IMG/VR virus record: IMGVR_UViG_3300047554_000765
Span: 1-54,214 of that record
DNA length: 54,214 bases
Source: a virus
Lineage: Duplodnaviria > Caudoviricetes
Reading direction: 5' to 3' (one strand)
The notes beneath the pieces were generated by a model. It made no database searches. It saw only the letters and a list, made by a program, of their open reading frames with translations, and was not told where the DNA came from. Positions 11,777-47,911 of this stretch are shown here, one piece after another (the stretch's first letter is position 1; each line of letters begins with the position of its first letter). Made by a program: the position numbers and the translations under genes.

Positions 11777-12982
11777 CTACTCCACTGTAATAACGCTGAT
11801 AAATTCTCGAGGATTGAAGTCCCCTCCCAAAACCATAGTAAGTAGGCCAGCGTTAGAAGTTGCACCAGCACGGTCGCGGTACCACTCTGATCCCGGGTCT
11901 GTGGTTGGACACTGACACCACAAGCGGTGTCCGATATCCATTGTGCGGAAGTTGTGGTAGTGGCCAGAGATCCATACATCACAAAGGCCAAGGGCTGTTT
12001 GCCCCAGAGACTGTTGCTGTAAATACTTCTCTGGATTGTTTGCACTCATCTGGTGGCCGTGGAAAAGTCCGAGCATCGTGCCATTGATATCCACAGCGAG
12101 AGTCTGGTGTCCCGACGCAGGGAAGCGGAATTCAACATGCGACAGAGCTTGGTTTTCTGCACACGCATCCTGAACAGCAGATGCAATTTCCACATTCCAT
12201 CCGTCTGCAGGATCTGCAGCGACTTGGCGAGTTACCTCGTCGTGATTTCCGTTTACTACGGGGACAACCATGCGCTCCGCCATTGGAGCAAAAGATTTAA
12301 TCTGAGACATGAGAAGACGTCGAGCAACGCGTACCTGTTCGGTCAGTCCTAAGTCTGATGCAGCTTGACCTTGTAGGCGTCCACCCTGAGAAACAATTCC
12401 CTCTACGTGGTCGCCTGGTAGTGCCAAGACAATAGTTCCTAGATCTAAACCAATCTTCTTATATGCTTCGAATTTGCTAACTGCTTTTTGTGTTCCAGCA
12501 AGAATTCGATCAATAGATTGTTGAGTTCCGTTACCCTGAGCTTTCTTACCAATCTGCTGATCGCTAGGTGCCACTAAATATGCACCTTTACCAGTGTGCT
12601 GTTTTATGCCTCGCTCTGGACGCCACTTTTTAATTTCGTCAATAAGCTTTTCTGCGTCTAAAGCATTTTCTCGATCTGCCCAAGCATTGTTTGGAGTCAG
12701 ATTTACTCGTACTGACTCGAGAAATTCTCCGTCATATTTTTGCCACTTCCCGCGGCGCATGGACGACACTGTCCAATCTTCGGGATCAAGTCCGAACTCT
12801 TGGAGGATTGCATTTGCATCTGGAATCTCCGATGACGGGCGTGGTTTCGAAATTACAAAACCACCCCTTGAGGAATCAACGTCCATTCTTGGACGCCAAT
12901 CTTCTGGAATATTTAAAGATTTAATGTCAGATCCGGTTGTTCCGGGTGAAGCTAGTTTCTCTAAGCGTTCGCTTAGGCTCAT
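11777..12982 (-). CDS. Calcineurin-like metallophosphoesterase
   Basis: SDQQIG, GDHVE, GNHDE, HGH, GHYH motifs. Confidence 0.8.
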   Translation of the reverse strand: MSLSERLEKLASPGTTGSDIKSLNIPEDWRPRMDVDSSRGGFVISKPRPSSEIPDANAILQEFGLDPEDWTVSSMRRGKWQKYDGEFLESVRVNLTPNNAWADRENALDAEKLIDEIKKWRPERGIKQHTGKGAYLVAPSDQQIGKKAQGNGTQQSIDRILAGTQKAVSKFEAYKKIGLDLGTIVLALPGDHVEGIVSQGGRLQGQAASDLGLTEQVRVARRLLMSQIKSFAPMAERMVVPVVNGNHDEVTRQVAADPADGWNVEIASAVQDACAENQALSHVEFRFPASGHQTLAVDINGTMLGLFHGHQMSANNPEKYLQQQSLGQTALGLCDVWISGHYHNFRTMDIGHRLWCQCPTTDPGSEWYRDRAGATSNAGLLTMVLGGDFNPREFISVITVE

Positions 12983-46493: not shown

Positions 46494-46525
46494 AAATGCC
46501 TCCGCTTGCGGGGGCATTTGTTTTT
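46494..46525 (+). terminator. Rho-independent terminator
   Basis: AAATGCCTCCG-CTTG-CGGGGGCATTT then GTTTTT. Confidence 0.85.
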
Positions 46526-46557: not shown

Positions 46558-46689
46558 ATGGCAAAAGGCAAGGGTGGCGGAGCTCCGGCTCCTCAGAAGA
46601 CAACTACTGACCGCAAGAACGGAAAGGCTTCAAAGAAGCGCCCAAAGGTCTGGGACCCGGAGAAGCGTCGTCTAGTTTCTGGTAAATAA
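46558..46689 (+). CDS. Unannotated 43-aa basic protein MAKGKGGGAPAPQKTTTDRKNGKASKKRPKVWDPEKRRLVSGK
   Basis: RBS GAAAGGA; own promoter TTGCGG(46506-11)-17 nt-TAGGAT(46529-34); ATG..TAA. Confidence 0.75.
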   Translation: MAKGKGGGAPAPQKTTTDRKNGKASKKRPKVWDPEKRRLVSGK

Positions 46690-46702
46690 GGTATAATAAT
46701 TA

Positions 46703-46876
46703 GGCGGTGCGGCTCCTACGTATGTAGGGTGTCCAAACTCGCTGAATGCAGAAGGTAGCTTATAACTATCCTCTAGCCGTCAATTCGTTATAAGTGGCTT
46801 GGCACACCCTGTTCCAGCGCTGGGCAGAAAAATCCCTAGCAATAGGGTCGGACGTCACCCTTGAGGTGGCGTCCTC
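46703..46876 (+). ncRNA. Candidate structured non-coding RNA of unknown class
   Basis: Follows TATAAT (46692-97); several complementary stems and a GCAA tetraloop; ends just before tRNA-Asn. Confidence 0.5.
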
Positions 46877-46878
46877 AT

Positions 46879-46950
46879 TGACCATTAGCTCAACGGCAGA
46901 GCAGAGAGCTGTTAACTCTAAGGTTCCTGGTTCGAATCCAGGATGGTCAG
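46879..46950 (+). tRNA. tRNA-Asn (GTT), CCA not encoded
   Basis: Acceptor TGACCAT/ATGGTCA, D arm GCTC/GAGC, anticodon loop CTGTTAA, T arm CCTGG-TTCGAAT-CCAGG, discriminator G. Confidence 0.95.
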
Positions 46951-46974
46951 CGCAACACATATAACTAAATACAA

Positions 46975-47296
46975 GGGCCTGACTGGTTTCGACAGTGAAA
47001 CTGAAGTCGGTGAAGCAAGCAGAGACGCTCGTAACTCTTAGATCGAGCAAAAAATATAAATGCTGAATCACGTTCAACATTCGCTCTAGCTGCTTAGCAA
47101 TAAGTAGTTAGAACCCCTAGCAAAGCACTAGTCTTAGGTGGGCAGCTAGGCTTCAAATAAATAGGACAACCAAGAGCGATCTACAGCAGCTCTTTAATCA
47201 AGCAGTGGACCCGCAGGACCGTGGCTGGTAGAGCCTAAGCTTGTAGAAGAACGATGGAACTTTTGCTGGACGCGGGTTCAATTCCCGCCAGGTCCA
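46975..47296 (+). ncRNA. ssrA: tmRNA, tag (A)AESRSTFALAA
   Basis: GGGCCTG/CAGGTCC acceptor with G3.U, GGTTTCGAC 5' motif, T arm GCGGG-TTCAATT-CCCGC, tag frame 47062-47097. Confidence 0.95.
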
Positions 47297-47911
47297 CTAG
47301 AGTAATTTTTCAATTTCAGAGCAGATCAACTCGTAAGCTTGCTCGGCGGTGAGGGGCTCGTGATCGTGCTCGTCAATTGTTATTACACCATTCTTGACGT
47401 TTTCGTAGTAGTAATCAAGAAGGGTAAAGTTAGGGAATCTCTTTACCAAATTTCCTTCTCTATCAACCAAGAACTTTTCAAAGTTGCCACCCATAGGAAA
47501 CTCTTTAGGGGTGAGGGCTTCATAGAGTGGGTGTGGGTCGCGCCAGTTGTCTCGCTTCTTGCGCCAATACTCATCTACTTGCGATGTAATCATCTCTGAG
47601 AAGTCGTAGGTTACGGCATAAGTCTCGATGGCGTACATTCTTGCATCATTGGCACAGGTAATACCGTCAACCCACTTGTCGTAGGTGATTCCAGGACCGC
47701 AGTAGTCGTTTGTAGGGATAGCTGCAATCTCAAATCCTCTGTCCTTGTACTTCTGGTAAATCTCTTCCAGAGGCTTTAGCTGAGGGGCATTTCCGCAATT
47801 GGCGGTTACGTTAACTATTAAAGTAACTTTGCCCTTGTACTTGGATAGAAAGTCTGCTTTATCGTCCCATGATTTAATGGGAATGTCGTAGATTGATTTA
47901 GTTGCTTCCAT
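47297..47911 (-). CDS. Glutathione-peroxidase-family (Cys-type) thiol peroxidase
   Basis: YKGKVTLIVNVTANCG, L..IY.KY..RGFEI.AIPTN, NFEKFLVDREG; probable start MEATK at 47911. Confidence 0.8.
   Translation of the reverse strand: MEATKSIYDIPIKSWDDKADFLSKYKGKVTLIVNVTANCGNAPQLKPLEEIYQKYKDRGFEIAAIPTNDYCGPGITYDKWVDGITCANDARMYAIETYAVTYDFSEMITSQVDEYWRKKRDNWRDPHPLYEALTPKEFPMGGNFEKFLVDREGNLVKRFPNFTLLDYYYENVKNGVITIDEHDHEPLTAEQAYELICSEIEKLL

Follow-up and report, generated by a model that had tools for sequence, protein, structure and literature searches.

Between a small open reading frame (ORF) and the tRNA-Asn gene of an uncultivated phage lies a stretch of DNA that comparison with related loci identifies as an insertion peculiar to one phage lineage. 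We give about an even chance to the reading that this element is a lineage-specific, non-coding and mosaic leader of the tRNA-Asn/tmRNA transcript, made up of hairpin modules and released by RNase P. Nothing so far indicates that it belongs to a new class of conserved RNA.

Genomic context of the element

The window, by which we mean the whole stretch of DNA that was analysed (54,214 nt), is IMG/VR record IMGVR_UViG_3300047554_000765, an uncultivated virus whose completeness is estimated by CheckV at 32%. It contains replication, ribonucleotide reductase, tail-fibre and WhiB-like genes, and the WhiB-like gene indicates an actinobacterial host; the phage group to which it belongs is uncultivated and from freshwater, with hosts that are probably actinobacteria. 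The element and its neighbours are arranged as follows:

46558 to 46689, plus strand: small ORF of 43 aa, basic, from the ORF list; a marker of the locus that lies outside the RNA
46692 to 46697, plus strand: TATAAT, a -10-like box seen in the sequence, 2 bases past the small-ORF stop
46698 to 46878, plus strand: inserted non-coding stretch, absent from kin and bridged by contigs of other runs with 0 to 2 differences
46879 to 46951, plus strand: tRNA-Asn (GTT), called by ARAGORN; Rfam 63.6 bits
46975 to 47297, plus strand: tmRNA with tag AESRSTFALAA, called by ARAGORN; Rfam RF00023, 125.8 bits, full length

The tRNA-Asn and tmRNA genes are separated by 23 bases. The small ORF is lysine- and arginine-rich and has no Pfam or PHROG family match. 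Its relatives, of which we found 20 among 80 NrdF-anchored loci, 184 in IMG/VR and 177 in metagenome contigs, almost always lie 7-44 bases upstream of tRNA-Asn or tmRNA, and a search of species genomes returned as sole match a 1.8-kb contig of a Microbacteriaceae MAG, which is without the element. The phage encodes its own tmRNA (46975-47297), and 57 distinct tmRNAs were found in kin loci, with tags mostly ending in FALAA. Further upstream, at 46497-46524 of the window and following a 90-aa ORF, a strong G+C hairpin between A and T runs has the look of a two-way terminator; this hairpin is the source of weak Phe_leader Rfam matches on both strands.

The TATAAT pointed out in an earlier, sequence-only reading of this DNA is present at 46692-46697, and its position is conserved among kin, with a TA[TC]A[ACG]T hexamer standing 2-8 bases past the small-ORF stop in nine of the 12 distinct kin spacers of 27-47 bases that precede tmRNA. 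We presume that it is the promoter of the leader, tRNA-Asn and tmRNA. A generic consensus scan found no full -35/-10 promoter of the sigma-70 type at the box, which leaves room for another origin of the RNA, as the 3' tail of the message of the small ORF.

On the leader reading, transcription would start a few bases past TATAAT, near 46704, and the first ~175 bases would fold into a chain of local hairpins, named H1, H2, H3 and H5 below. The presumed leader RNA would accordingly extend from about 46704, a 5' end placed from the -10 box, to 46878, the last base before the RNase P site of tRNA-Asn. RNase P has an established role in tRNA 5'-end processing. Because the element, with its -10-like box upstream at 46692, ends at 46878 and tRNA-Asn starts at 46879, cleavage at 46878/46879 would release the leader and define its 3' end. 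The sequence-only reading had proposed such an end; the direct adjacency to the tRNA stands, and the cut itself would follow from the enzyme's role. The strong hairpin that the released RNA would carry, 4 bases short of its 3' end, is expected to slow 3' exonucleases, so that this by-product of tRNA processing may persist.

Distribution among related loci

Related loci were anchored on the NrdF gene (80 of 357 IMG/VR matches kept), on the small ORF (80 loci used out of 184 in IMG/VR, and 80 out of 177 in metagenome contigs) and on the tRNA-Asn variant (22 contigs). Across 95 kin loci, the gap between the small ORF and the following tRNA or tmRNA is at most 13 bases in 46, 14-60 bases in 18, 61-330 bases in nine and larger in 22. 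In four kin loci (L004, L007, L012 and L016) tRNA-Asn begins 7 bases past the ORF stop, and when the junctions are aligned with theirs, about 180 extra bases are seen in the window only. The closest kin, L002 and L003, are 86% identical to it over 7 kb and are without both the element and tRNA-Asn; in L002 the tmRNA lies 85 bases past the ORF stop.

Other cargo occupies the same junction elsewhere: a 204-aa ORF on the opposite strand in L006, 550 bases of other non-coding DNA in L005, and, in one contig of sequencing run X11, 356 other letters in place of 46695-46973. These comparisons mark the junction between the small ORF and the tRNA or tmRNA as an insertion hot spot, and the element would have arisen there by recombination, where kin hold other cargo. 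We infer that the phage group, taken together, can do without it and that it has no essential function. Protein-coding cargo of 500-800 bases at the junction was also seen at L006:4404-5018 (minus strand) and in the spacers of L174 and L133.

No full-length relative was found by blastn, tblastx or nhmmer in up to 285 loci (1.48 Mb), and the whole records behind 50 kin loci gave only fragments at E 0.18-0.21. Four pattern scans of IMG/VR, three of them derived from the element (from its stem A, H5 and H2, described below), returned no homologue of the whole element, and it was upstream of none of the 22 tRNA-Asn-variant contigs. The H2 pattern had no match; the stem-A pattern had a single match, L082, which is unrelated and due to chance; and the H5 pattern matched 19 contigs, of which 17 belong to an unrelated A+T-rich phage group and two are other unrelated sequence. 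In loci L267-L285, from the unrelated A+T-rich group, the 10-pair stem of H5 carries a different loop and is followed by a T run, as in a terminator. The sequence-only reading had proposed a distinct ncRNA and possibly a new motif; such a claim needs conservation, and an insertion of one lineage with no full-length relative in these searches does not provide it.

The element is nonetheless real DNA in nature, nearly invariant across four studies. Between 0.53 and 1.00 of its sampled words are contained in 14 DNA runs, one of which may be the source, the other 13 coming from four studies; for runs X13 and X14, uncovered parts of the element do not mean absence. In three other runs it is spanned by contigs that show 0, 1 and 2 differences. 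The fraction of sampled words found in RNA runs X15-X20 is only 0.07; these words probably stem from the tRNA, and the runs are uninformative on expression.

Coding potential and RNA family searches

The element is non-coding: the ORF list holds no ORF of at least 30 aa wholly inside it, although short frames of 20-30 codons exist. It could encode a small peptide, or a read-through extension of the small ORF, but to this we give next to no credence, as none of its frames has a relative by tblastx in 105 loci, none reaches 30 aa wholly inside it, and kin small ORFs stop at the same position.

Searches against Rfam matched no known family, with nothing at gathering score and nothing of note at E up to 10, and upheld the earlier observation that tRNA, SRP and RNase P signatures are lacking. 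Neither a tRNA or tmRNA cloverleaf nor a tRNA-like domain with a T arm was found by ARAGORN or Rfam, which give only the neighbouring genes; calls made inside the element with relaxed ARAGORN settings were low-scoring, spurious artefacts. The manA model (RF01745, threshold 55.2 bits) did not match at gathering score, nor when 601 or 186 bases were searched with E up to 10, and a profile of nine kin manA copies likewise gave no match to the element, from which the invariant blocks of the kin copies are missing. Nhmmer profiles of four further kin spacer families (clusters 1, 3, 4 and 5) left it unmatched except for one fragment at E 5.8.

A ribozyme or an RNA-polymerase-binding, 6S-like RNA had also been suggested, and neither finds support. 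The Rfam ribozyme models (hammerhead, twister, pistol, hatchet, HDV-like) do not match at E up to 10, there is no Rfam match to 6S, and the predicted folds have no end-to-end closing stem with a central bubble. Nor does the 3' hairpin H5 resemble an intrinsic terminator: no T run follows it and a plus-strand terminator scan does not call it.

Predicted fold

The helices considered here, four local hairpins and two long-range stems, are the following:

46711 to 46733, plus strand: H1, local hairpin with a 4-base loop; 46711-46735 folds at -9.4 kcal/mol (z -2.18); in the minimum free energy (MFE) structure; rivals the 5' half of stem A
46748 to 46777, plus strand: H2, local hairpin; its fold shape is common to the window and to positions 496-531 of metagenome contig L232
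46806 to 46848, plus strand: H3, composite hairpin that includes the small hairpin of the sequence-only reading; 46803-46850 folds at -16.3 kcal/mol (z -2.59); in the MFE structure
46850 to 46874, plus strand: H5, 10-pair G+C-rich 3' hairpin; -18.6 kcal/mol (z -3.96); 4 bases before tRNA-Asn
46724 to 46812 (46724-36/46799-812), plus strand: stem A, long-range helix around H2; pairs present; alternative to H1 and H3
46758 to 46795 (46758-66/46787-95), plus strand: stem B; 9 pairs present; excludes H2

Fold statistics were taken from dinucleotide shuffles, with G-U pairs allowed in the helix count. The MFE of the whole stretch has a z of -2.45, with five of 200 shuffles folding as well; for 46702-46875 the z is -2.38, with one of 200 shuffles as good, and the minus strand gives -1.88. 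The fold beats chance only modestly. The helix content of the element is not above chance: a helix of at least 10 pairs occurs in 35.6% of 1000 shuffles, and at least three helices of at least nine pairs in 14.4% of 1000 (three observed, shuffle mean 1.27).

The MFE structure is a chain of local hairpins comprising H1 (46711-33), H2 (46748-77), H3 (46806-48) and H5 (46850-74). Its frequency in the ensemble is 0.013-0.017, and the folds compete with none dominant; among the local hairpins, H5 alone is strong by itself. Every stem named in the sequence-only reading can be found in the letters. Stem A (46726-36/46799-810) has 11 pairs and one bulged C and extends to a 9-pair stack at 46724-32/46804-12; stem B (46758-66/46787-95) has nine pairs, one of them G-U; the small CCCTA-GCAA-TAGGG hairpin lies around 46834-46847; and the 10-pair hairpin 46850-59/46865-74 does end 4 bases before tRNA-Asn. 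As an observation the earlier description is borne out in part: letters and stems are as stated, and an excess of these helices over chance is not established.

The long-range arrangement fared less well. H1 and H3 each use one half of stem A, and H2 uses the 5' half of stem B, which forms its loop and top. Forcing stems A and B together gives -58.5 against -64.7 for the MFE, a cost of 6.2 kcal/mol; stem A forms in the predicted fold of 46720-46815 by itself and in that of the minus strand, and is absent from the MFE structure of the whole stretch. The letters of the proposed pseudoknot do give a 6-pair complement (46709-14/46775-80), the 3' partner of which is overlapped by H2. Neither the long-range stems nor the pseudoknot has comparative support. 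The comparative evidence, though little, goes against the long-range model, because the conserved internal hairpin H2 (46748-46777) is incompatible with stem B and overlaps the pseudoknot partner, and L232 does not retain the segment of stem B in the top of H2. The variants observed within the element number only three and do not discriminate between the fold models: 46764 A>G falls in the H2 loop or makes a G-U pair in stem B, 46768 A>G retains an H2 pair as U-G, and 46784 T>G is unpaired under both. On the plus strand the two A>G changes are thus unpaired or preserve a pair as G-U, which agrees with the leader reading.

The exclusive folds could be read as a cis-acting switch, in which H1 with H3 and, alternatively, stem A enclosing H2 tune read-through or processing of the tRNA-Asn/tmRNA precursor. 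That stem A shares bases with H1 and H3 and is preferred when the core is folded alone agrees with this. We nevertheless hold a switch to be very unlikely, in view of the missing terminator-like site on the plus strand and riboswitch family match, of the fact that most kin express the same genes without such a leader, and of how commonly alternative helices this long arise by chance. A further idea, that the element base-pairs with tmRNA, with tRNA-Asn or with the message of the small ORF, was rejected, as 39, 54 and 12 of 60 shuffles, respectively, gave a duplex energy at least as low.

Counterparts of two modules in contig L232

The comparative support for the leader reading comes from one second sequence, L232, a metagenome contig with the order small ORF, 89-base spacer, tRNA-Asn, 233-base spacer, tRNA-Gly and tmRNA. 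Two modules only, H5 and the internal hairpin H2, have counterparts, both in L232 and both in another order and context. The H5 module is identical at 33 of 34 bases to L232 833-866, immediately before tRNA-Gly, and the single change, C to T, turns a C-G pair into U-G and so keeps the pairing. Upstream of this hairpin L232 carries a manA-class RNA, identical at 149 of 184 positions to the copy in L066; the L066 copy passes the Rfam threshold and L232's own falls below it. This placement of H5 after a manA-class RNA hints at a cassette of structured RNA, hairpin and tRNA, within which the core of the element could be a functional analogue.

The 89-base spacer of L232 contains a hairpin with the base and flanks of H2 in the window and a different top, and both fold alike. 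All 10 pairs are standard in both sequences, and three of the five distal pairs are changed on both sides; with two sequences only, 62 of 500 shuffles reach as much covariation. Conservation of the pairs despite these two-sided substitutions suggests that the hairpin is under selection. A model of it, R1, found only the window and L232 copies at E below 0.1 in 99 sources, and the pattern of H2 flanks occurs only in these two among 285 loci. The top of the H2-like hairpin in L232 resembles the top of H5, with a score reached by seven of 1000 shuffles.

Structured RNAs in the tRNA arrays of related phages

Adjacent tRNA/tmRNA genes of kin are separated by 116 gaps, of which 75 are under 100 bases and 32 measure 125-249 bases. 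The long gaps hold no consistent ORFs and group into sequence families, among them manA (RF01745, 61.5-72.1 bits), which lies between the tRNA genes of kin phages in five loci. Examples of the families are:

L068:9514-9695, L073:11787-11968, L024:12029-12210, L033:11829-12009 and L066:11491-11677: kin manA RNAs, matches to RF01745
L073:12289-12457, L007:4909-5090 and L005:9324-9505: cluster 1
L073:12041-12213 and 12609-12822, and L068:10162-10378: clusters 3, 4 and 5

Cluster 1, a spacer family of about 170-180 bases with 20 distinct copies, adjoins tRNA-Thr or often stands just before tmRNA. Compensatory changes occur in 13 of its 21 predicted pairs, and a scan of two loci against Rfam (E up to 1-5) gave no match for it, which makes it a candidate new structured RNA family. 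Clusters 3, 4 and 5 are further non-coding spacer families with eight, five and seven distinct copies and no Rfam match in the loci scanned. The kin manA RNAs, lying between tRNA genes, cannot be 5' leaders of protein genes; the phages that bear them have a WhiB-like gene and come from freshwater, and so fall outside both the marine and cyanophage range and the 5'-UTR position described for manA.

Several other spacers drew our attention. At L115:1630-1910, at L109:1630-2180 and in the 230-base spacer of L207, the small ORF is followed by strings resembling T arms and acceptor stems, none of them called by ARAGORN; unusual tRNA-like RNAs or decayed remnants of tRNA or tmRNA may lie behind them. 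L112:1636-1700 and the 111-base spacer of L196 have in common a hairpin whose loop, about 22 bases long, is conserved and whose stems differ yet pair (L112, -29.1 kcal/mol, z -5.3). A general rule of 3' hairpins was rejected: a terminal hairpin near the tRNA is present in 24 of 50 long kin spacers, against 99 of 250 control windows, so that no excess is evident, and the families cannot be counted as independent. Apart from the manA papers, a narrow literature search found none on structured RNAs located within the tRNA arrays of phages.

Alternative explanations

The z of about -2.4 and the near-invariance in four studies would also fit a functional RNA, that is, a structured, trans-acting small RNA of an accessory class matured from the tRNA/tmRNA precursor, like the manA-class and inter-tRNA RNAs of kin. 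Its position and size match the inter-tRNA spacer RNAs, whose families include manA and one with compensatory changes in 13 of 21 pairs, and H5 follows a manA-class RNA in L232. We regard this as unlikely, if well short of negligible, given that the element has no homologue and thus no covariation, that all five kin-family profiles miss it, that its folds compete (MFE frequency 0.013-0.017) with helix content within chance, and that the closest kin are without it. A more elaborate version, which strikes us as distinctly improbable, makes the element an orphan of a large, undescribed accessory repertoire of structured RNAs, among them the manA-class RNAs and the covarying cluster 1, as swappable cargo of the tRNA/tmRNA operons of freshwater actinobacterial phages that is excised by tRNA-processing enzymes; the element's internal hairpin would mimic both ends of the tag frame of tmRNA and could thereby engage trans-translation.

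The same junction, as a recombination hot spot, lends itself to the opposite view that the element is recombination debris with no role at the RNA level, a set of shuffled hairpin modules of which part may be a decayed tag-coding region of tmRNA. Its modules are common to L232 piecemeal, in another order and context, and the likeness between the tops of the L232 H2-like hairpin and H5 (seven of 1000 shuffles) is of this kind; model R1 gives a weak match (14.9 bits, E 1.2) to kin tmRNAs in their tag region, and the L232 spacer can be read as 11 codons and a stop, the same length as the kin tag. The tmRNA likeness is, however, not significant, its best local scores being reached by 16 and 15 of 100 shuffles and, under stricter scoring, by 74 and 10 of 100, and the Rfam tmRNA model does not match the element; moreover, H2 retains its pairing through two-sided changes, which suggests selection. 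Debris we regard as unlikely, to the same degree as the trans-acting RNA. The RNase P-released leader keeps what stood of the sequence-only interpretation, namely a non-coding element of no known family next to a tRNA, and leaves aside the new motif, the long-range stems and the ribozyme or 6S-like role.

Comparison with known systems

Taken alone, the element matters little, being an orphan insertion of one lineage without a demonstrable conserved fold. Its surroundings matter more, since structured non-coding RNAs accumulate in the tRNA/tmRNA region of these freshwater phages, a hot spot. That kin tRNA arrays carry manA RNAs and one or more further spacer families with clear compensatory changes and no Rfam name is the more interesting observation. 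If such RNAs are indeed freed by tRNA processing and act alone, the reading of manA would change, and the spacer RNAs of kin would open a set of phage RNAs for study.

The 6S RNA is similar in length to the element, which differs from it in having no Rfam 6S match and no closing stem that joins its ends around a central bubble. To the tag region of tmRNA the likeness lies in two short blocks of H2 and of the L232 spacer, which are ordered and spaced like the two ends of the tag frame in kin tmRNAs; it is not significant by shuffling, and the element has neither a tRNA-like domain nor a match to the tmRNA model. The idea of a tmRNA fragment, which had come from block likeness by eye and weak model matches, was set aside on the shuffling result.

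The published accounts of manA (PMC2864571, PMC9964418) describe a likely 5'-UTR element known from marine metagenomes and from cyanophages; manA RNAs have been described as candidate cis-regulatory riboswitches of marine cyanophages. Like the element, manA (RF01745; Weinberg et al. 2010, PMC2864571) is a phage-borne structured non-coding RNA, of about 190 bases. Its kin copies sit between tRNA genes and the L232 copy precedes the element's 3' hairpin. The element differs in failing the manA model at E up to 10 and the 9-copy kin profile, and in being without the invariant blocks.

Two features of T4-type phages are also close in kind. Their genomes are said to contain promoter/stem-loop cassettes that mediate modular shuffling, and the element resembles these in joining a promoter-like box to stem-loops at a hyperplastic junction with varied cargo. 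The cassettes are reportedly repeated many times per genome; no second copy of the element was found within the 54-kb window. The tRNA cluster of phage T4 reportedly also yields species 1 and 2 RNAs, small and stable RNAs of unknown function which, like the element, are said to be non-coding, 100-200 bases long, co-transcribed with tRNAs and excised by tRNA-processing enzymes. Accumulation has reportedly been shown for the T4 RNAs, unlike the element, which is known from its sequence. The element is best filed as an orphan example of this known kind, a non-coding RNA embedded in a phage tRNA operon.
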